This document shows positions 17,939-57,122 of a DNA stretch of 64,000 nt, piece after piece; the first letter of the stretch is position 1; each line of letters begins with the position of its first letter. The position numbers and the translations under genes are program-made. The stretch is from positions 6,817 to 70,816 of the forward strand of contig DASWLM010000013.1 in the NCBI GenBank assembly GCA_036396095.1, in the 5' to 3' direction. The notes beneath the pieces are model-generated. The model was not told where the DNA came from and searched no databases. It saw only the letters and a list, made by a program, of their open reading frames with translations. The DNA is from Dehalococcoidales bacterium (GTDB lineage Bacteria > Chloroflexota > Dehalococcoidia > Dehalococcoidales > Fen-1064).

Positions 17939-18877
17939 CTACGTGCCCAGTTTCATCACTCCAATTAGTTCCTGTACCGCCTTCGCTGAGTTCGCCAGCG
18001 CGTTCTTTTCCTCGGCGGTCAGTTCCAGTTTCACCACCTGCTCGATACCGTTCTTGCCGAGTTTCACCGGCATACCGAGGACTGTATCCCTGATGCCGTA
18101 CTCACCATCAAGTCTGGTGGCGCAGATAAGGACTCGTTTCTTGTCCATAATGACCGCTTCTGCCATCTCCGCCAGCGCTGCCGAAGGTGCGTAGAAAGCA
18201 CTGCCGGTCTTGAGCAGGGCGACAATCTCCGCCCCGCCGTTTACCGTCCGGTCGGCAAGTTTGGCAATTTTATCTGAGGACATCAGTTTTGTAATTGGCG
18301 TGCCTTTGACCGTAGTCAGACGCGGAATGACCACCATACTCTTGCCGTGCTCACCGATAACGCAGGGAGAAACATCCTCGATGGATATCTTCAACTCCGC
18401 GGCGATAAAGGTAGCCAGTCGCGCGCCATCTAACACGCCAGATAGTCCCAGTATCCGCTTGCGTGGGAATTTGCTCTCATGAAGCGCCAGATAGACCATG
18501 GCATCGACCGGATTCGTGGCGATGATGATAACGCAGTTGGGAGAATATTTCACGATATTGCGGGTGACTTCGCTGACAATCTTCTGGTTGGTAATTAGCA
18601 GGTCGTCGCGGCTCATGCCCGGCTTCCGCGCCACACCAGAAGTGATGATGACGACATCGGATTTAGCCGTCGCTTCATAGCTATTGGTGCCGGTAATTTT
18701 CGAATTGAAACCGAGGATGTTTGCCGATTGCTGAATGTCCAGCGCCTTGCCCTGTGGTAGTCCTTCGATGATATCCAGCAGGACAACGTCTGCATAGCCT
18801 TTTTCTGCGATTCTCTGGGCACAGGATGCCCCCACATTCCCCGCCCCGATAATGGTTACTTTAACACGGCCTTTCAT
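17939..18877 (-). CDS. mdh: malate dehydrogenase (LDH-like type)
   Basis: Starts at ATG 18877 (MKGRVKVTIIGAGNVGAS). Full-length LDH/MDH-family pattern including GEHG. Confidence 0.9.
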   Translation of the reverse strand: MKGRVKVTIIGAGNVGASCAQRIAEKGYADVVLLDIIEGLPQGKALDIQQSANILGFNSKITGTNSYEATAKSDVVIITSGVARKPGMSRDDLLITNQKIVSEVTRNIVKYSPNCVIIIATNPVDAMVYLALHESKFPRKRILGLSGVLDGARLATFIAAELKISIEDVSPCVIGEHGKSMVVIPRLTTVKGTPITKLMSSDKIAKLADRTVNGGAEIVALLKTGSAFYAPSAALAEMAEAVIMDKKRVLICATRLDGEYGIRDTVLGMPVKLGKNGIEQVVKLELTAEEKNALANSAKAVQELIGVMKLGT

Positions 18878-19004
18878 TATGCACCGCCTTCGTTGGAAAC
18901 TCACAGCGTATTGTACTGCATAAAGGGGAAAAGGTAAATATGGGAAAATACCAATTCTCAATCGTCAAATAACAAACAACTTGTGAGAAAGAAGAGAATG
19001 CCAA

Positions 19005-19985
19005 TCAGCCGCCAATTTGTCGCATTGAACGTCCCGCCGGAATATTCCCTTCACTTAAATGGTGTTGGGCTCGTTTCAGGAAAGCCGCCGACTGAATAAG
19101 CTGTGCCAGTTCCTCAATTGTGGCGCCTCTGCGTAACGGCTCTTTAATATCGATTTCATCATCGTCCAGCAGGCAGGGGCGCAGTTTGCCATCCGCTGTG
19201 AGACGGAACCGGTTGCATCCTGCGCAGAAACACTCGGTCACCGCTCCGATAAATCCGAGCGTGCCGTTGGCACCGGGCAGTTTGTAGTATCGGGCGGGAC
19301 CGTTGCCATCTGCCGGTTTGTGCGGTACCAGTTTCCCGAGGTTACTTTCGATACGCTTTATAATTTCCGCAGTGGATACCAATCCGTTACCGCGAGATGC
19401 AGAATTTTCGAAGGGCATATGCTCGATGTAGCGAACGTGCCAACCGTCGGTTTGGGTCTTGCGGGCGAAGTCGATGATCTCATCCTCATTGATGCCTTTG
19501 AGGACGACCATATTGATTTTGACCGGCTGAAGTCCGACGCGGTTAGCTTCTGTAATGCCTGCCAGTACGTCCGCCAGTTTATCGCCGCCCGTGATTTCAA
19601 AAAATCTACTCGGTTTCAGAGAGTCGAGGCTAACATTGACCCGTTTCAGTCTGGCTGATTTGAGTTCTTCAGCGTAGCGTGCCAGCAGAGTGCCGTTGGT
19701 CGTCATGGAGACTTCTTCAACACCCGGTACGCCGGCGAGCATCCTGACCAGATTACTGAGGTATAAGCGCACCAGCGGCTCGCCGCCCGTGAGACGGATT
19801 TTGGTAACACCGAGGCTGGCGGCCGCTTGGACAATACGGTGGATTTCCTCGTAACGGAGGATATCTTCGTGGGTATGTGCTTCGAACCGCGATGTGCAGT
19901 AGATACAGCGCAGATCACAGCGGTCGGTCACGGAGATACGCATATAGTCGATACGGCGGCTGAACGAATCAACGAGATTGGACAT
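19005..19985 (-). CDS. moaA: GTP 3',8-cyclase MoaA (radical SAM)
   Basis: CDLRCIYC radical-SAM motif and the C-terminal CxxCxxxxC...C cluster region (CFCAGCNRFRLTADG). Likely start is ATG 19985. Confidence 0.9.
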   Translation of the reverse strand: MSNLVDSFSRRIDYMRISVTDRCDLRCIYCTSRFEAHTHEDILRYEEIHRIVQAAASLGVTKIRLTGGEPLVRLYLSNLVRMLAGVPGVEEVSMTTNGTLLARYAEELKSARLKRVNVSLDSLKPSRFFEITGGDKLADVLAGITEANRVGLQPVKINMVVLKGINEDEIIDFARKTQTDGWHVRYIEHMPFENSASRGNGLVSTAEIIKRIESNLGKLVPHKPADGNGPARYYKLPGANGTLGFIGAVTECFCAGCNRFRLTADGKLRPCLLDDDEIDIKEPLRRGATIEELAQLIQSAAFLKRAQHHLSEGNIPAGRSMRQIGG

Positions 19986-20004
19986 GCAGAATAGCAAAGG
20001 GCTG

Positions 20005-20170
20005 AATCAAAAATGTGAGCCTTCTTGCGGAAGGCACAATTAATTATCAGGCATACAGCCCTGAACTTCCCTCCTTTCCAGAATGGGGGGCGCAACCGTT
20101 TCCCGTTGCACCGTATCGGTCGCCGTCCATAGGCATTCTGCCCACAGGCACGGCAACTCGGAAGGAACTT
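20005..20170 (-). promoter_or_regulatory. Moco (molybdenum cofactor) riboswitch-like leader with intrinsic terminator, upstream of moaA
   Basis: The minus-strand leader CCTTCCGAG...GATACGGTGCAACGGGAAACGGTTGC...TTCTGGAAAGGAGGGAAG (20170-20066) contains segments I recall as conserved in the Moco RNA motif, plus nested hairpins. It is followed by GCCTTC-CGCAA-GAAGGC and ATTTTT (20037-20005). Confidence 0.55.
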
Positions 20171-20282
20171 TTACAGTTCTATTTTCACTATAGCGTGTTG
20201 GATGCGGAGAGTCAATTTCCTGACAATTTTGGATGGGTTTTGCTTGATTCTCTGGCGTTTCCCCTGTATCATTATCTACAAT

Positions 20283-21035
20283 ATGACGGACGCAGAGTCA
20301 CAGCGACTGGCGGCAGAGGCGCTAAATGCCTCCTTCTATTACGGAAAGCTGAAGGTGCTGGATAACCTGTCCCTGCGTATACCGCATGGTATTAGTTACG
20401 GTCTACTGGGACCGAATGGCGCCGGGAAAACAACCCTTATCCGACTCCTCGTCGGGCTATTAAGACCGCGTCAGGGTTCGATTTCTGTGCTCGGTCAGAC
20501 GCCCTCACGTCAGACTGCTCATCTCATCGGGTATATGCCTCAACAACACTCTCTCTACAATGAGCTTTCCATTGTTCAAAACGTCGATTTCTTTGCACGG
20601 ATTTACCTTACGGATAACCGGAACGAGCGTGTGAAGCGTGTGGAAGAAGCCGTCAAACTAGTAGGTTTATGGGAGCGCCGTAACGACGGGATTATGAAAC
20701 TGAGTGGTGGGATGAAACAGAGAGTCAGCCTTGCCTGTGCGATTGTCCACGACCCGCCCCTCCTGTTTCTCGATGAACCGACCGTGGGACTAGACCCGGA
20801 ATTGCGGGTCAATTTCTGGGAACATTTCGCCGACTTGAATAAGAAAGGCGTCACCATTGTTATTTCCAGCCATACTATGGATGATGCCGCTCATTGCGAC
20901 CGTCTGGCTTTCATGCGGAATGGTCAACTGATTGCCGAAGGCACCCCGAATGAATTGCGGCGGGCAACCGATAAATCGAATGCTTCTCTCGAAGATGCCT
21001 TCCTTTATTTTGTGCGTCGTGAGGAGACAAGGTAA
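20283..21035 (+). CDS. ABC transporter ATP-binding protein (ABC-2 exporter type)
   Basis: Walker A GPNGAGKTT, signature LSGGMKQR, Walker B LLFLDEP. Confidence 0.9.
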   Translation: MTDAESQRLAAEALNASFYYGKLKVLDNLSLRIPHGISYGLLGPNGAGKTTLIRLLVGLLRPRQGSISVLGQTPSRQTAHLIGYMPQQHSLYNELSIVQNVDFFARIYLTDNRNERVKRVEEAVKLVGLWERRNDGIMKLSGGMKQRVSLACAIVHDPPLLFLDEPTVGLDPELRVNFWEHFADLNKKGVTIVISSHTMDDAAHCDRLAFMRNGQLIAEGTPNELRRATDKSNASLEDAFLYFVRREETR

Positions 21036-47106: not shown

Positions 47107-47733
47107 TTAGATAATCTGTTGAATGCCGGAAATGATGAACCAACCCCCGAAACCGAGAAGTAACAGACTACAGATAATAAAGATGCCCGTTTGGAATTTC
47201 TTCCCCCAGAGTGTTTTCGTGCGGTAAATCACGAACGATACTATTGATAACCAGATAAGGTCGCAAGTCCAGTGTGTCAGAATAAAGATGGGGAGCCCGG
47301 CCATCCCGAATTCCATGAATTTCATCACGAGCGTTATGCCCACGGTTGCCCACCAGAGCAGGAAGAAAGGATTACTGGCGCTCATAATAATGCCAGCGGT
47401 AACAGCACCGTAGACTAAGTCTTTGCCACTCTCCACCACATCCTTACGAGCACGAAACATGCCGATGCCCATCCAGATGAGCATCCCTCCACCCAACAGG
47501 CTCAAGACAATCTGTACGATATTATTCTGAAAGAAGCGGGAAAACCCGAAGTAAATCAGAAGAATGAGCGGCACTTCAATAATGGCATGACCCAGAGAGA
47601 TTTGCACGCCTGCCCAAGGACTGCGATAGCTCTTAGCGACTGTGACGGCAAACATAGGACCTGGAGTCATCACGCCGGATAGGGAAATAACCACTACGCT
47701 AATTATAATAGGAAGCAAATCCCCACCTCTCAT
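47107..47733 (-). CDS. LysE/RhtB-type membrane translocator
   Basis: N-terminal MTPGPMFAVTV motif and 5-6 TM segments. The start is taken at ATG 47733; the ORF extends to 47838. Confidence 0.6.
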   Translation of the reverse strand: MRGGDLLPIIISVVVISLSGVMTPGPMFAVTVAKSYRSPWAGVQISLGHAIIEVPLILLIYFGFSRFFQNNIVQIVLSLLGGGMLIWMGIGMFRARKDVVESGKDLVYGAVTAGIIMSASNPFFLLWWATVGITLVMKFMEFGMAGLPIFILTHWTCDLIWLSIVSFVIYRTKTLWGKKFQTGIFIICSLLLLGFGGWFIISGIQQII

Positions 47734-47840
47734 TGATTGTAACCCAGCCAAGATAGACAGTGCCACTCTATTGATGTCAGTAAGCGGGTAGTATAGGATG
47801 TATATATCTTCACTATCAGCCTGCTTTGGAGTGAGCAAAA

Positions 47841-49031
47841 GTGTCGCTTGACCTATCCCAAGTCGTAAAACAGATTACCGAGATGGTCGCCCGATTAAAA
47901 ACTAGACGGAAGGAGCGGCTGGAACGGATTACCCGTGCCGTTGATATCCTGCACAGTCAGGCGGATAAACTCGATTCGCTCAAGAAGAAAATTGCACTGA
48001 GCAAAACGACGTGGCTGGTTGCCGAACCTGTTGAGGTGCTGGACAAGTGTATGCCTGCTCCAGATGTGCCCACTGATTTTACGGTCATCGCTACGGATGG
48101 CTCGCATATTGATGTCGACCGTCACCACGCCGCGAACTGTTTTCTGATTAATATCGGGGTGGTAGTGTTGCGCTATGGCGCTAATCCGGACGCATTTTTG
48201 GATAGTCAGCCCGTGGTCTATTCCAGTGATGCTGACCTGATGATTGCATCACCCGATGGACTGCGCGAAGTGCCGGTGGAAGGGAACTTGCTTGGTGTGA
48301 AACGGAGCGTAGAGGAATGCCGCCGATTGGCGGAGCTGGTACGCAAGCTTCCATCTAATAGTACGGTGCTGGGGCTGATGGATGGTTCACTTATTCTCTG
48401 GAATCTGGAAGCCTATCCGGAATTCGTCACGGAATCATTGCTTAATAAAGGCTATTTGACTTATCTGGATGAGATTCACCGACTGACCAAGGATAAACAG
48501 ATTGTCGTTGCCAGCTATATCAGCTTCCCCCGGAGCACGGATGTGGTCAATGCCCTGCGTGTGGCAATGTGCCCTCGGGAATTGGTGGATAGCGACCGTT
48601 GTTCTGACTGCACAACTAGGGAGTGCTACAGTATTTCTGGTGTGCATGACCGCGACCTGTTTGCCGGAATATTGAAGCCAGGAGAGCGTTCGGTGCTTTT
48701 CATCAGTCCTTCCAAAATCCAGAAGCGGTATGGCAAACACTTGGTGTATTTTTTCTACCTGAGATTAAACGGAGAGATTGCCCGTGTGGAAGTACCGCGC
48801 TGGGTAGCGGAAGACAGAGTAAAATTGGGACTCGTTCATACGCTGGTGCTTGACCAGTGTCGGCGCGGACAGGGTTATCCGGTGGCTCTCAGTGAAGCCC
48901 ACGAAAAAGCAGTGGTTACAGGCGCTGACCGCGATAATTTCTGGCGGATGGTCGATGAATCGTTGGTAGAAAAGCATCTGCCCGTCACCGAGTCAGAGAA
49001 GAGCCGTAGTAAGAGGACAAGATGGCTTTAA
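47841..49031 (+). CDS. nurA: NurA-domain nuclease
   Basis: Motifs FTVIATDGSHIDVD and VLGLMDGSLILWN are typical of the NurA RNase-H-like fold. 396 aa, GTG start. Confidence 0.75.
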   Translation: MSLDLSQVVKQITEMVARLKTRRKERLERITRAVDILHSQADKLDSLKKKIALSKTTWLVAEPVEVLDKCMPAPDVPTDFTVIATDGSHIDVDRHHAANCFLINIGVVVLRYGANPDAFLDSQPVVYSSDADLMIASPDGLREVPVEGNLLGVKRSVEECRRLAELVRKLPSNSTVLGLMDGSLILWNLEAYPEFVTESLLNKGYLTYLDEIHRLTKDKQIVVASYISFPRSTDVVNALRVAMCPRELVDSDRCSDCTTRECYSISGVHDRDLFAGILKPGERSVLFISPSKIQKRYGKHLVYFFYLRLNGEIARVEVPRWVAEDRVKLGLVHTLVLDQCRRGQGYPVALSEAHEKAVVTGADRDNFWRMVDESLVEKHLPVTESEKSRSKRTRWL

Positions 49032-49115
49032 AAATTCTGTTGACCCTCTATCCTAATCGTTATAGAATACGCACACAGGAGATGACATCCCGCTCCCGGG
49101 CGGAGGAGGTGTACT

Positions 49116-49596
49116 ATGGTGCCAAAGAACATTGCGGAAGGACTGCGAGTTTGTGAGTTATTTGTAACATTGGATGAGAAGGAGATGAAAACACTGCTCG
49201 ATGTGCTTGGTACTGCCTGTGAAACGGTGGACTATAAGCCAGGCGACCACATCTTCGACCAGGGTGAAAATGAGCACGAAGCTCTATGTCATTGTCAGCG
49301 GGCAGGTAACGCTGGCGCGCTCGGTCAATATGGGTAACAAGACCGGCGCCTGGCCCCTGGGTCTTTTGGGACGAGGGCGTGCAATGGGGTGGTCGGCGGT
49401 GCTTTACGGGCCTCGTTATTCCACGGCATCTGCCGTCTGCCAGAAGGCGGCACAAATAATCACCATCGATGGCGCCAGATTGAGGGCGGTGCTCGAAAAT
49501 AATCCGGTGATAGGTTTTAAGGTAATGGACAAGCTGGCGTGTATGCTAGGAGAGAGACTCAGGGCAGCGTACAATACACTGGAAGGACACCTGTAA
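49116..49596 (+). pseudogene. stand-alone cyclic-nucleotide-binding (CAP/cNMP) domain gene interrupted by a +1 frameshift
   Basis: The domain is split across two frames. Frame A (from 49116) reads ...VDYKPGDHIFDQGENEH. Frame B continues KLYVIVSGQVTLARS...GLLGRGRAMGWSAVL...RYSTASAVC. The junction is at about 49265-49280. Confidence 0.7.
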
Positions 49597-49632
49597 AACT
49601 AAATATCTAATATCCATTTTCTAATTTCTAAG
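49597..49632 (+). repeat. heptad TCTAA array, left arm flanking the four-helix-bundle gene
   Basis: AACTAAATATCTAATATCCATTTTCTAATTTCTAAG. Confidence 0.6.
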
Positions 49633-49638
49633 GAATTT

Positions 49639-50022
49639 ATGGTGAAGAGTGAATATAAGTCTACGGGGAAACGTGACCTGGAAGAACGGACACTGAAGTT
49701 TGCGAATGACATAGTCGGATTTGTTGAAAGACTTCCGAGAACAATACCCAACAACGAATTGGTGAAGCAGTTGGTGAGGTCTGCGGGTTCAATAGGTGCT
49801 AATTACATCGAAGCTAATGAGGCACTAGGGAAGAAAGACTTCCTACTCCGGCTCCGTATCTGTAGAAAAGAAGCAAAAGAGTCTGTTTACTGGTTAAAGC
49901 TTATTCGTGTAAAAACCGATATAATTGTTGAGCAACGCGATACTCTTCTGCAAGAAGCCACCGAATTGACAAAAATATTTGGTGCAATCGTTACTAAACT
50001 TCAACCCCCAGAAAATGTTTAG
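49639..50022 (+). CDS. four-helix-bundle protein (23S rRNA intervening-sequence protein family)
   Basis: Pattern LVRSAGSIGANYIEANEALGKKDFLLRLRICRKEAKESVYWLKLI is typical of this family. Confidence 0.8.
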   Translation: MVKSEYKSTGKRDLEERTLKFANDIVGFVERLPRTIPNNELVKQLVRSAGSIGANYIEANEALGKKDFLLRLRICRKEAKESVYWLKLIRVKTDIIVEQRDTLLQEATELTKIFGAIVTKLQPPENV

Positions 50023-50044
50023 ATATTAGATATTAGGTATTGGG
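50018..50044 (-). repeat. heptad TCTAA array in inverted orientation, right arm flanking the four-helix-bundle gene
   Basis: TTTAGATATTAGATATTAGGTATTGGG, the reverse complement of the ...CCTAATATCTAATATCTAAA type. Confidence 0.6.
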
Positions 50045-50051
50045 AATTATT

Positions 50052-50639
50052 ATGAGTACCAAAATTGCTGAAGTAATCGAGTCCTCTACCACAGGTTTTA
50101 TTGCCGAAGCATACGAACTCTACGATTTGCCTTCTTTCGGCAGTCTGGTGAAAATCATTGAGCCGCCGTCAGAAATCTACGGCATTGTTTGTCAGGCAGG
50201 CACGGCGAGTATCGAACCGGGGCGGCGTCCTATCGCCCGCGGTAAAGATGAAGCCTCTGAGAGGGCAGTCTATCAGACCAACCCTCAACTGATGAAACTT
50301 CTCCGAAGCGAGTTTACCGTGCTGGTGGTGGGATATACGAACGATGGGAAAATGTACCAGTACCTGCCTCCCAAACCGGCGCACATTCACGCTTTTATTC
50401 ACCCATGCAGTCCAGATGAAGTGAAACGATTCAGCCAATCCTTTGATTTTCTCAATCTGCTCATCACGGGGAATTCTCAGGTACCAACGGAAGAGCTAAT
50501 TGCCACCGTCCTGCGGGAGATGAGCCGGGTACAGGATGACCCGCGTGCTTTTCTGGTTAATGCCGGGAAATCGCTCACCACTTTGCTCAGTGGTGACTAC
50601 CAGCGGTTGCGAGCGATTCTTGGGAGGTTGCGGACATGA
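50052..50639 (+). CDS. uncharacterised 195-aa protein, translationally coupled to herA; N-terminus resembles a small beta-barrel (HAS-barrel-like)
   Basis: Its stop overlaps the herA ATG (ATGA, 50636-50639). The N-terminal KIAEVIESSTTGFIAEAYELYDLPSFGSLVKIIEPPSEIYGIVCQ resembles the HerA N-terminal barrel pattern. No enzymatic motif recognised. Confidence 0.6.
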   Translation: MSTKIAEVIESSTTGFIAEAYELYDLPSFGSLVKIIEPPSEIYGIVCQAGTASIEPGRRPIARGKDEASERAVYQTNPQLMKLLRSEFTVLVVGYTNDGKMYQYLPPKPAHIHAFIHPCSPDEVKRFSQSFDFLNLLITGNSQVPTEELIATVLREMSRVQDDPRAFLVNAGKSLTTLLSGDYQRLRAILGRLRT

Positions 50640-52252
50640 CAGAAACCAGTCAGGCGCTCGGTATTGTCGTCTCCGGCTCGGTGGAGAAGGGTGTTGATAT
50701 TCGCCTTGATGCGCAGGCTTCCGTCGAGGATATGGTCGTCGGGCGGTATGTAACTATCGAGGGTAAGAAGCGCCGTTTCTTCGGTATGATAACGGACATC
50801 AGACTCGGTGTGACCGATGAAGCCATCACAGCGACGCCGCCGGATACCTCCGACCCTTTTACCGCTGAAGTGTTAGAGGGTACCGCAACCTACGGCACTC
50901 TACACGTCCTGCCGATGTTAACAATTGGCGGAGATGTCACCAGCATCGTTGAAGGACCCCAGCCGGTAAAGACAGTACCCAGCCACTTTTCTCGCGTCAG
51001 CCTCGCCTCGGAACAGGATATGGAATTGGTCTTCGGCAAGGAAGACGCTCAGCGGTTCTGGATTGGCAATCCACTGGATATGGAGACAAAGTTATGCCTT
51101 AATCTTGAGGAACTGGTGAAGCGAAGCAATGGTATCTTCGGCAAGAGCGGCACAGGTAAGACCTTCCTGACGCGCTTGCTCCTCATTGGTATGCTTCAAA
51201 AAAGCAAAGCAGTCAACCTCATCTTTGATATGCACAATGAATACGGCTGGGAGGGGAGCAGTGAGAGCGCGGGTCGCAAAGTAAAGGCGCTGAAGCAACT
51301 CTTCCCGGAGAAGGTGGCGGTTTTTACTCTGGATGAAGAGAACTCGAAGCGGCGTGGCGTCAGCACGGATTTCACGGTGCGCATCGGTTTCGATGAAATT
51401 GAACCAGAAGACATCGCTCTCCTCCGACAGACTCTGAATCTTACAGAGGCGGCGACCGAAGCGGTCTATCAATTACGACGTCGCTTTGGTAGAGACTGGA
51501 TGCAGAAAACGCTTGACCTTTCGGATTCAGAGGAGACGAAGAATCTGCTCCAGCAGATGAATATCCACGAAAGCACATTTCAAAATCTACGGCGCGGATT
51601 GGCAACCATCCGCCGTCTACCGTTCATCGTTCAGCGCACGCCGGTAGATGCCGTGAAAAGTATACTGGAATACCTCGACCGCGGTATTAATGTAGTCCTT
51701 GAATTTGGACGGTACCGCGATATCACTGCTTATGTACTGGTGGCGAACATGCTCGCCCGCCGTATTTATAATCGCTATCAGGAAAAGATGGAAGCATCCA
51801 TGGCGGGAAATGTGGCTTCTCCTACCCCGCTGGTTATCACTATCGAAGAAGCCCATAAGTTCCTCAACCGGGAGGTGGCGAACTACACTATCTTCGGTAC
51901 GATTGCCCGCGAGATGCGTAAATACAATGTCACTTTACTCGTCATCGACCAGCGTCCCAGTGCCATCGACGAAGAGGTGATGTCGCAGTTGGGCACTAAA
52001 ATTACCTGCCTGCTGGACAATGAGAGGGACATCGATTCTGTGCTTGCTGGTATCTCAGGAAAAAATGAACTAAAAACAGTACTGGCGCGTCTGGCACCTA
52101 AACAACAGGCATTGATTTTCGGACATGCCGTCCCGATGCCTGTGCCCATCAAGACCAGAGAGTGGGGCAGTCAGGAGTCATACAAAGAGTTTGCACGTGG
52201 TAATGTCTCCAAACAACAGGCAGAAAAAGACATAAAGGAGCTTTTCGACTAG
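50636..52252 (+). CDS. herA: HerA/FtsK-type hexameric ATPase (DUF87 family)
   Basis: N-terminal barrel (LGIVVSGSVEKGVDIRL...VGRYVTIEG), Walker A GIFGKSGTGKTF, Walker B-like PLVITIEEAHKF, and LLVIDQRPS. Confidence 0.85.
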   Translation: MTETSQALGIVVSGSVEKGVDIRLDAQASVEDMVVGRYVTIEGKKRRFFGMITDIRLGVTDEAITATPPDTSDPFTAEVLEGTATYGTLHVLPMLTIGGDVTSIVEGPQPVKTVPSHFSRVSLASEQDMELVFGKEDAQRFWIGNPLDMETKLCLNLEELVKRSNGIFGKSGTGKTFLTRLLLIGMLQKSKAVNLIFDMHNEYGWEGSSESAGRKVKALKQLFPEKVAVFTLDEENSKRRGVSTDFTVRIGFDEIEPEDIALLRQTLNLTEAATEAVYQLRRRFGRDWMQKTLDLSDSEETKNLLQQMNIHESTFQNLRRGLATIRRLPFIVQRTPVDAVKSILEYLDRGINVVLEFGRYRDITAYVLVANMLARRIYNRYQEKMEASMAGNVASPTPLVITIEEAHKFLNREVANYTIFGTIAREMRKYNVTLLVIDQRPSAIDEEVMSQLGTKITCLLDNERDIDSVLAGISGKNELKTVLARLAPKQQALIFGHAVPMPVPIKTREWGSQESYKEFARGNVSKQQAEKDIKELFD

Positions 52253-52274
52253 TACCTATTTGAGAAATTCATAA

Positions 52275-52375
52275 CTCCCTAGGGGAGAGGGTGAATAAAT
52301 ATAGGCAGTAGTGGAAAAGATAAACGACCTCACCCCGTCCCTCTCCGTCGACGGAGAGGGAGATGGAGGGAGAGG
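52275..52375. repeat. GGGAGAGG-type palindromic elements (including a perfect 22-bp palindrome)
   Basis: CTCCCTAGGGGAGAGGGTGA (52275-52294), CCTCACCCC, then CCCTCTCCGTC|GACGGAGAGGG (52339-52360), then GGAGGGAGAGG. Confidence 0.6.
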
Positions 52376-52387
52376 TAGAATGTAAAT

Positions 52388-53218
52388 ATGAACAACAAAA
52401 TGAATCGTAAGAAAGTTGGATTAGCGCTGGGTGGCGGCGCGGCGCGTGGGCTGGCGCACATCGGGGTGCTGGAAGTATTGGAACGAGAGAGTATCCCCAT
52501 TGACATGATTGCCGGCACGAGCATGGGGGCAATCATCGGGGCTTTCTATGCCCATACCCGTGACATCAACCTGATTAAAGACCTTGCGGTGGAGGTGGGC
52601 AAACACCGCATCCGGTTTTTTACCGACCTCACTATCCCCAGGACGGGAATCCTGCGCTGGAAATGGGTCGAGGACAAGTTGAAGAGAGTTATCGGCGGGG
52701 TACGGTTCGAAGACTTGAAGATTCCTTTTTCCTGCGTGGCGGTTGATATTGACAATGGTGAGGAGCTTATCCTTAATGAAGGACTAGTCTGGGATGCGGC
52801 GCGTGCCAGCGCTACCGTTCCCGTAGCACTATCAATAAATCCGTGGAAGAACAGGTACTTGGTTGATGGTGGAGTCTCCAATCCAGTCCCGGTCAGCGTT
52901 TTGAAACAGATGGGCGCCGATTTCATCATTGCAGTCAATGTCCTGCACGATACCGCTAATGTTGCTGACCACGAACCTTCTAAGAAAGAGAAAGCCAGAG
53001 AGCACAATATTTTCACGATTATGGCTAAGACTATGTATATAGTTAGTTATCGTGTTATCGGCACATCCCTTGGTGGTGCAGATGTGGTGATTGAACCGGA
53101 TATGATCGGCATCAACTTCACAGATTTCCAGCGAGCGAAAGAATGTATCAAGAGAGGTGCGCTTGTGACACAAAAAGCCATCCCTGAAATTAAGCGCCGA
53201 TTATCCCTCGCTGAGTGA
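52388..53218 (+). CDS. patatin-like phospholipase (RssA/YlbK type)
   Basis: Oxyanion GLALGGGAARGLAHIGV, nucleophile GTSMGA, and the catalytic Asp region YLVDGGVSNPVP. Confidence 0.9.
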   Translation: MNNKMNRKKVGLALGGGAARGLAHIGVLEVLERESIPIDMIAGTSMGAIIGAFYAHTRDINLIKDLAVEVGKHRIRFFTDLTIPRTGILRWKWVEDKLKRVIGGVRFEDLKIPFSCVAVDIDNGEELILNEGLVWDAARASATVPVALSINPWKNRYLVDGGVSNPVPVSVLKQMGADFIIAVNVLHDTANVADHEPSKKEKAREHNIFTIMAKTMYIVSYRVIGTSLGGADVVIEPDMIGINFTDFQRAKECIKRGALVTQKAIPEIKRRLSLAE

Positions 53219-55958: not shown

Positions 55959-57122
55959 ATGCGATTTCTATCTCGTTTATTTGGGCAGCCGCCCAAAAAG
56001 ACTGAAATTAATATTCATCTTACTGGACCAAGCACATTCTCAACTCAAGTTGTTGGTGAATCATATTATCAGGAAAACCTGAGCAAGATATGTGGCGGTT
56101 TTACTGAAGAAGGGGTAGACCGGATTACAACCGCTAAGTTGGTCCACACCGATGATAATCCACATGACACTAACGCTATAAGAGTTGAAATATCTGGTAT
56201 GCCAGTAGGTCATCTGAACAGGACGGAGGCACAGAATTATAGAGAACGAATGAAAGCTAATGGACATTCGGGATTAACTGCTACTTGCAACGCCAAAATA
56301 ACAGGGGGATGGGATAGAGGTAGCAACGATATCGGTTACTTTGGTATAACTTTAGATATGCCAAATGATCTCGTCGAGTCGCTAAGTAACGGTGCTCCGA
56401 TCACAAATAATTTAGAACAAACAATGGAATCTGATGCTTTCTTATTTGATGTTGAAAAAAGTCCGCCAGAAGAATTGGAGCGATGCCGTATAGGGGATTA
56501 TGTGAATTTTTGGGTTCCCAAAGATAACACGAGCAAGGTCTTCATTTTTCGTCGTAGAGCCGTTGGGGGTACCGGCAAAATAGGAATCGTGCCAAATAAG
56601 TATTCAAATGTTATTTCTGCTCATTTAAGCAAAGGGTTAGAGTGTGAAACGGAAATAGTAGAAATTGACATTGACAAATCAATCTGTAAAATAAAATGTA
56701 AATTAATAAGCAAAGAAGAAACCGCTGCTAGGCAAGCATCAGAAGTCGAAGCCGCTGCTAGTCGTTTAAAAGATGAATTACAAAAAAGATATAAACCGAA
56801 ACAATCTCTTTTAATCAGAGTACAACTACCGAAAAACCATCAATTGAAAGAAGGGCAAAAGTTATATCTTGAAAAACAAACCTTGGAATATTACATTCAG
56901 AATGCGACGAGCCTTCATATTAATCTAGTTGACAAAGATGGAATTGTTGTTGCACAAAAAAATAATGAGCCCCGATTAATTTCCTCTATTCTTAGAGCGT
57001 TTTTTAGCCAATACGCGATGACTTTCCAGATAAGTTCAATAGAAAAGCCAGATAAGTACACTCTGAAATATTTAGATCAAATAGAAGCTAAGGTAACAGT
57101 TTCTTTTGAAAAGGATGCATAA
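55959..57122 (+). CDS. HIRAN-domain protein with two further uncharacterised beta-rich modules
   Basis: The N-terminal VVGESYYQENL ... AKLVHTDDNPHDTNAIRVEISGMPVGHLNRTEA matches the HIRAN pattern (GxxYY ... EPxNPxDxNAI.V ... vGyl.r..A). The remainder is unknown. Confidence 0.65.
   Translation: MRFLSRLFGQPPKKTEINIHLTGPSTFSTQVVGESYYQENLSKICGGFTEEGVDRITTAKLVHTDDNPHDTNAIRVEISGMPVGHLNRTEAQNYRERMKANGHSGLTATCNAKITGGWDRGSNDIGYFGITLDMPNDLVESLSNGAPITNNLEQTMESDAFLFDVEKSPPEELERCRIGDYVNFWVPKDNTSKVFIFRRRAVGGTGKIGIVPNKYSNVISAHLSKGLECETEIVEIDIDKSICKIKCKLISKEETAARQASEVEAAASRLKDELQKRYKPKQSLLIRVQLPKNHQLKEGQKLYLEKQTLEYYIQNATSLHINLVDKDGIVVAQKNNEPRLISSILRAFFSQYAMTFQISSIEKPDKYTLKYLDQIEAKVTVSFEKDA

Follow-up and report, generated by a model that had tools for sequence, protein, structure and literature searches.

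Introduction

In Deinococcus radiodurans, the genes of the NurA nuclease and the HerA ATPase have been treated as one operon that was deleted and complemented together; the two proteins assemble into a 6:2 HerA:NurA complex without a third subunit, in which the HAS-barrel domains of HerA provide the docking surface for NurA (PMC9960219). In the complex of Thermococcus kodakarensis, all three HerA-NurA interfaces make use of the alpha1 helix of the HAS domain and the loop before it; the cellular role of NurA-HerA is debated, with end resection and the destruction of foreign DNA as the two proposals (PMC12977600). Here, we describe a gene, termed X in the following, that is located between nurA and herA in a 64,000-nucleotide (nt) stretch of a Dehalococcoidales genome (phylum Chloroflexota; GenBank assembly GCA_036396095.1, contig DASWLM010000013.1, positions 6,817 to 70,816 of the forward strand; this whole stretch is referred to as the window). 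As in D. radiodurans, the window carries both enzyme genes on one strand, and its HerA possesses a HAS barrel, the domain that serves in D. radiodurans as the NurA docking site; in contrast to D. radiodurans, however, the Chloroflexota have a conserved third gene between nurA and herA, with translational coupling to either of them. Based on the gene order in closely and distantly related loci, X is the middle gene of an apparently vertically inherited nurA-X-herA module in Chloroflexota; according to structural modelling, its product corresponds to the N-terminal module of HerA (HAS barrel plus two helices) without the ATPase and with an additional three-helix tail. A full-text search of the literature yielded neither a report of a third subunit for NurA-HerA nor one of a HAS-barrel partner that exists as a separate protein.

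Results and Discussion

The X gene, its family and its coupling to herA

Gene X (50052..50639 including the stop codon, plus strand) starts with ATG at 50052, terminates with TGA at 50637..50639 and encodes a protein of 195 amino acids (aa); start, stop and length could all be read from the sequence as given in the earlier note, a short annotation made from the letters of the window and its open reading frames (ORFs). X is a genuine gene, because an identical protein has been recorded from a Dehalococcoidales metagenome-assembled genome, 2143 homologues were retrieved at E<=1e-3, and the ratio of nonsynonymous to synonymous substitution rates (dN/dS, omega) was 0.21 relative to an 87%-identical homologue (same comparison: 0.025 for HerA and 0.15 for NurA), a value that indicates purifying selection. 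An exhaustive profile search expanded the family to 958 clusters at 50% identity (625 with E<=1e-10), and the X homologues are annotated only as "hypothetical protein". All organism-labelled members were assigned to the Chloroflexota (Dehalococcoidales, Dehalococcoidia, SAR202 cluster or "Chloroflexota bacterium") with the sole exception of locus L040; the latter derives from a bin labelled Deltaproteobacteria, yet contains a typical Dehalococcoidales X-herA locus and has probably been mis-binned.

The ATG of herA is positioned at 50636..50638, and the tetranucleotide ATGA at 50636..50639 is therefore common to the stop of X and the start of herA, as had been noticed earlier from the window sequence. 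A Shine-Dalgarno motif, GGGAGG, is present at 50622..50627 within the last X codons, i.e. those encoding the conserved C-terminal L-G-R-L-R of the protein; its GGAGG core ends 8 nt ahead of the herA ATG, and the complete coupling signal (motif, 8-nt spacer and ATGA) covers positions 50622..50639 on the plus strand. The proposed coupling was borne out by comparison of 79 loci with X and herA (the window and 78 loci of other Dehalococcoidia genomes): the 4-nt overlap was repeated in 51 of the 79 loci and the gap was at most 3 nt in 64, and the overlap is, because of this recurrence, more than a chance arrangement. The overlapping tetranucleotide was ATGA in 44 and GTGA in seven of the 51 cases; a Shine-Dalgarno-like motif preceded it in every one of them, with GGAGG in 41. 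A scan of positions 47600..52700 for promoters and terminators returned counts equal to the shuffled expectation.

Conservation of the nurA-X-herA gene order

Two sets of loci were compared, the first consisting of 80 loci from species genomes with X proteins 57-87% identical to that of the window (near loci), the second of 80 metagenomic loci that were found with a 3-sequence alignment of a distant sub-family and encode X proteins of 37-46% identity (distant loci). In the near loci, herA was located downstream of X on the same strand in 70 of the 71 cases with enough sequence (within 200 nt in 62), and nurA was present upstream on the same strand within 6 kb in 44 of 68, usually at a distance of 0.4-3.5 kb with variable small genes in between; the genes for the patatin-like phospholipase, ksgA and ispE usually followed herA. 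In the distant loci, nurA was detected upstream of X in 60 of 68 (directly upstream, within 300 nt, in 54 of 68) and herA downstream in 47 of 63. The adjacency to HerA-type ATPases, on which the earlier note had made its proposal depend, is thus a property of both sets. Indeed, X shares a conserved neighbourhood with nurA as well as herA, and the order nurA-X-herA was kept over a range of X identities between about 87% and about 37% while the surrounding genes changed completely.

The view of X as a herA-coupled gene, in contrast, holds for the Dehalococcoidales, whereas the distant lineages more often couple X to nurA: the gap from nurA to X was at most 2 nt in 24 of 64 distant loci, compared with 9 of 55 that exhibited the 4-nt overlap between X and herA. 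The association of X with NurA is thus at least as close as that with HerA. X heads the series X-herA-patatin-ksgA-ispE in one Dehalococcoidales genome that has no nurA within 10 kb. Pairs of nurA and X without herA in the following 5 kb occur in a clade of 13 distant loci (L083, L103, L119, L120, L125, L129, L138, L139, L141, L142, L148, L150 and L158), often with an overlap of 1-4 nt; L139 shows the order GroEL, nurA, X, with the downstream genes on the other strand. One database protein (P0189, 372 aa) consists of a NurA C-terminal fragment fused to a full X; the fusion is most likely an artefact, caused by a frameshift or by gene calling where nurA and X abut.

Predicted structure and domain identity of X

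An initial AlphaFold2 (AF2) model of X, calculated from 37 close homologues, had a predicted local distance difference test (pLDDT) score of 71.9 and was replaced by a model based on a 95-sequence alignment (pLDDT 91.7, predicted template modelling score 0.86). The Foldseek matches of the first model were already almost all HerA chains (E 2e-3 or worse); with the second model, 64 matches were obtained in the Protein Data Bank (PDB) at E<=1e-3, the top 50 of which were all HerA chains (probability 1.00, E 2.5e-6 to 1.7e-4). Among them were the HerA-NurA complex of T. kodakarensis (9x1l, E 2.5e-6) and the HerA proteins of Sulfolobus solfataricus (4d2i, E 4.3e-6) and D. radiodurans (7wrx, E 1.4e-4); the superposition with HerA-DUF4297 (9c1m_Q) gave a root-mean-square deviation of 2.4 Å over 135 columns, and SIR2-HerA complexes were also recovered. 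The best matches were aligned over about 127-140 columns, which correspond to the barrel and the first two helices after it; the modelled X hence superposes on the N-terminal barrel of the solved HerA proteins, and the barrel that the earlier note had expected a structure search to reveal is present in the prediction.

According to the model, residues 1-120 (50052..50411, plus strand) form the HAS-type beta barrel with strands at 6-11, 15-20, 32-37, 40-53, 84-97, 100-102 and 115-118. It is interrupted by an insert at residues 51-83 (50202..50300, plus strand), predicted as a conserved loop followed by helices 70-76 and 78-83. The chain stops 75 residues past the barrel, and this tail (residues 121-195; 50412..50636, plus strand) is all-helical, with five helices at 121-127, 133-139, 146-158, 164-178 and 183-191. 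The first two of these superpose on HerA, whereas the last three are family-specific; for the latter (residues 146-193), Foldseek detected no structural match in the PDB or in a viral structure library, and the tail was likewise without a match in Pfam, NCBIfam, PADLOC and PHROGs. At the sequence level, the window protein reached 16.0 bits (E 0.013) with the Pfam HAS-barrel family PF09378, under the gathering cut-off of 25.2; the family model was matched at E<=0.1 by 12 of 25 diverse X-family members (best E-value 7.7e-8), and two homologues (P0347 and P0363) carry a precomputed PF09378 match. Taken at the family level, these profile matches support the HAS-barrel assignment. In consequence, the HerA-like barrel suggested by the earlier note appears to be a genuine HerA-type HAS barrel, although its size is about 120-135 residues instead of the about 50 residues originally delimited; of the remaining about 140 residues that had been regarded as devoid of a recognizable motif, only about 50-75 at the C-terminus are orphan helices.

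The X protein did not match DUF87, AAA or P-loop families in Pfam or NCBIfam, and no ATPase or nuclease motif was detected with Pfam, NCBIfam and PADLOC, in agreement with what had been read from the sequence before. The protein was also without a match in NCBIfam, PADLOC and PHROGs as a whole, PDB sequence searches with the window X and with a 25-member family profile gave nothing relevant, and the viral structures of BFVD contained no match at E<=1e-3. Since the RecA-like ATPase core was looked for and is absent, X is not a HerA. Compared with the HAS domain of HerA (PF09378; 4D2I, 9X1L, 7WRX), X is alike in its beta-barrel fold, its helical insert and the two helices that leave the barrel; it differs as a stand-alone protein of 195 aa without the RecA-like ATPase or the helix-bundle domain and with three extra C-terminal helices. 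An origin by recent duplication of the 5' end of the cognate herA was not supported: the hhalign comparison of the X family with the N-termini of the HerA proteins encoded in the same loci resulted in E 0.02 over 56 columns, with the C-terminal helices of X left without any match. A recent duplication is unlikely in view of this weak profile similarity, and X would rather represent a paralogue of old origin or a domain retained by convergence.

Conserved segments and the charge of the barrel insert

The alignments revealed two blocks of conserved residues in the barrel insert, T51 together with the loop P56-G57-R58-R59-P60-x-A62-R63-G64, and P78-Q79..L83-L84 in the helical part; T51, P56, G57, R58, P60, A62, R63, G64, P78, Q79, L83 and L84 are invariant or near-invariant, and R58, P78 and L83 were at least 90% conserved among 60 diverse X sequences. 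Judged from the topology of the model and not from a residue-level alignment, loop 54-69 and helix 70-83 probably correspond to the alpha1 helix and its preceding loop in the HAS domain of HerA. The highest mean conservation of all X segments was observed for residues 105-120 (L-P-P-x-P-x3-H113-x-F-V-x2-C119; 50364..50411, plus strand), with H113 and C119, the sole conserved cysteine, at least 90% conserved across the family. The invariant R58, H113 and C119 distinguish the X family from the cognate HerA, which has serine at both positions corresponding to H113 and C119; no metal-binding or catalytic fold is evident around these two residues of X.

The arginine-rich loop (R58, R59, R63, K65) invites the interpretation of X as a DNA-binding accessory protein, the barrel of which would bind DNA ends or single-stranded DNA and load NurA-HerA or raise its processivity without HerA-like contacts. 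The conserved arginines are situated in an exposed loop with a pLDDT of about 78, lower than the rest of the model, and the operon context is one of DNA processing. However, the mean net charge of the loop region was near zero (near loci, +0.9; distant loci, −0.8), the remainder of the barrel is acidic, with values of −3 to −4.6, and the whole protein has an isoelectric point of 6.3; moreover, mutation of a conserved HAS-domain arginine in the D. radiodurans HerA left resection unaffected (PMC9960219). A direct role of X in DNA binding is therefore regarded as improbable.

Proposed role of X in the NurA-HerA complex

Our preferred interpretation, to which we assign a probability of about 0.5, is that X acts as a third, stoichiometric subunit in the NurA-HerA complex, an adaptor or collar and possibly a regulator that would employ HAS-type contacts; binding, stoichiometry and geometry are all inferred. 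X would be made in fixed proportion to its neighbours via the start/stop overlap, i.e. to herA in the Dehalococcoidales and often to nurA elsewhere, and would enter the complex as a structural component. Because the HAS-barrel face docks NurA and other effectors in the solved HerA complexes, the docking surface of X is most likely formed by the conserved loop 54-69 and helix 70-83, a surface of the same kind. In this position, X might serve as a HAS-type platform for the NurA dimer or as a collar stacked on the HAS ring of HerA, and may thereby couple or gate DNA transfer between the HerA translocase and the nuclease. A more specific version, in which X assembles into an ATPase-less HAS-barrel ring of its own that is the real NurA docking platform, a three-tier NurA2-X6-HerA6 stack, or a ring gating the access of NurA to HerA, is rather doubtful.

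Several observations weigh against the assignment of X as a third subunit. The cognate HerA has its own complete HAS barrel (Pfam E-value 5e-8), and the need for a second one is not evident; given how weakly X resembles the N-terminus of the cognate HerA at the profile level (E 0.02), mimicry of the HerA contacts is not guaranteed, and the charge of the X insert was not consistently complementary to the acidic HerA insert across the family. No natural X-HerA fusion was found among the best 120 matches to a concatenated 733-aa query, the lengths of which (about 504-550 aa, mostly about 538-540) are those of HerA alone. Mirror-tree analysis gave correlation coefficients of 0.96 for X-NurA versus 0.94 for X-HerA (partial r 0.65 versus 0.36); in a 13-locus control, however, NurA-patatin (0.77) correlated about as well as X-NurA (0.785), and the mirror-tree signal of X is indistinguishable from shared phylogeny and rate. 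Finally, the linkage is incomplete: 13 distant loci contain nurA-X and no herA within 5 kb, X stands alone in three loci (e.g. L106, where its neighbours encode Fer4 proteins and TsaD), and L058 has unrelated metabolic genes after X.

The broken linkage in L058, L106, L088 and L108 is what would be expected if the function of X were unrelated to NurA-HerA and the adjacency merely inherited synteny. This explanation seems highly improbable in the light of a gene order that persists over the whole identity range described above despite the full change of the surrounding genes, of the start/stop overlaps with both neighbours, and of a fold that is the HerA N-terminal module itself.

The nurA-X loci and the second barrel would also suit the main alternative, a negative regulator or decoy. 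As a HAS mimic, X would either sequester NurA dimers or cover the face of the HerA ring on which NurA docks, and would thus hold the nuclease-translocase inactive until a signal (such as a DNA end or damage) displaces it. NurA does bind HAS barrels (PMC9960219, PMC12977600), and its activity alone differs strongly from that in the complex (PMC12977600); the retention of X beside nurA in the 13 loci without nearby herA fits a pair of nuclease and keeper, X is often start/stop-coupled to nurA, and a second barrel could compete with the one that HerA already has. On the other hand, the equimolar coupling to herA in the Dehalococcoidales fits a structural subunit equally well, and neither Pfam nor Foldseek made a sensor or ligand-binding domain visible in X. 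Furthermore, this explanation overlaps with that of a third subunit, as both need binding and differ only in the sign of the effect. Altogether, a decoy function is considered unlikely, though less so than direct DNA binding.

Neighbouring genes and the question of a defence function

The nurA gene of the window (47841..49031, plus strand) is the upstream member of the module and encodes a 396-aa NurA nuclease (Pfam NurA PF09376, 5.4e-33); herA (50636..52252, plus strand) encodes a 538-aa HerA-type ATPase (Pfam DUF87, 7.8e-33) with distant sequence matches to solved HerA proteins in addition to the complete HAS barrel mentioned above. Two small genes are inserted between nurA and X (gap 49031..50052) in the window, one for a cyclic-nucleotide-monophosphate (cNMP)-binding-domain protein and one for a 23S-rRNA-intervening-sequence four-helix-bundle protein (49639..50022); both differ in order or are absent in the Dehalococcoidales relatives (L001, L004, L010, L075). 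The cNMP-binding-domain gene (49116..49596, plus strand) is frameshifted: the ORFs 49116..49337 and 49201..49596 together correspond to the intact 159-aa ORF of L001 (5066..5545), and the DNA alignment revealed an additional A within an A-run near 49265-49277. The gene might be either a pseudogene or the product of a homopolymer assembly error.

Further downstream, 3.7 kb from herA and past a rubrerythrin gene and a small ORF, the window contains a gene for a 387-aa HIRAN-domain protein (55959..57122, plus strand; N-terminal PF08797, 5.7e-9). HIRAN domains bind the 3' ends of DNA. No HIRAN gene was present at the corresponding place in the related Dehalococcoidales genome of L161; the latter possesses, about 6 kb downstream of herA, an SbcC/Rad50-like gene (18451..20588, plus strand; AAA_23, weak SMC_N and faint SbcC_Walker_B matches), an arrangement that recalls the archaeal herA-mre11-rad50-nurA cluster. 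In the window, a scan of the ORFs between 58 and 64 kb did not reveal an SbcC/Rad50-like gene.

Downstream of herA, the near loci consistently contain a gene for a patatin-like phospholipase (52388..53218, plus strand, in the window), with a 4-nt overlap with the herA stop in L161 (12204..12995) and L162 (7096..7887); the distant nurA-X-herA loci lack this gene. Its position may simply reflect the synteny of a herA-patatin-ksgA-ispE housekeeping super-operon, or the gene may have been added in this lineage; the flanking genes secDF, ksgA and ispE are conserved and indicate a housekeeping setting across the Dehalococcoidia.

A phospholipase gene next to herA raises the question of whether X could be an accessory or sensor component of a NurA-HerA anti-phage defence system instead of a repair machine. 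Partners of HerA in the defence complexes dock on the HAS-barrel face. Many bacterial HerA ATPases act in defence with such a partner, as in SIR2-HerA and DUF4297-HerA, both of which were among the Foldseek matches of X; the T. kodakarensis study suggests that HerA-NurA may destroy foreign DNA (PMC12977600), and the 4-nt overlap with the patatin gene in L161 and L162 points in the same direction. X resembles the known defence systems (SIR2-HerA, DUF4297-HerA, TdpAB) in that the partner gene adjoins herA; in the solved complexes among the Foldseek matches, the partner assembles with the HerA ring. Those partners, however, are enzymes (NADase, nuclease) encoded in mobile defence loci, whereas X has no catalytic domain, no PADLOC match and a housekeeping synteny that is conserved across hundreds of species genomes, and the module looks vertically inherited. 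Together with the missing patatin gene in the distant loci and the absence of phage or viral relatives of X in PHROGs and BFVD, these differences leave only a very slight chance for a defence function.

Implications

In the papers found, NurA-HerA is pictured as a two-protein machine; if X is indeed its third subunit, this picture would change across a phylum that includes the Dehalococcoidia and the marine SAR202. X would then extend a known machine by an accessory subunit that is lineage-wide and so far unannotated; the mechanism proposed for it is plausible but unproven. A motor-less copy of the HerA collar would also constitute a natural tool to dissect what the HAS collar does, be it NurA docking, ring assembly or DNA gating. 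In addition, a "domain-mimic ring" derived from the N-terminal collar of the motor itself would be a way to couple or regulate a ring translocase of which, to our knowledge, no example has previously been described. For about a thousand 50%-identity clusters hitherto listed as "hypothetical protein", the assignment provides the first testable annotation.

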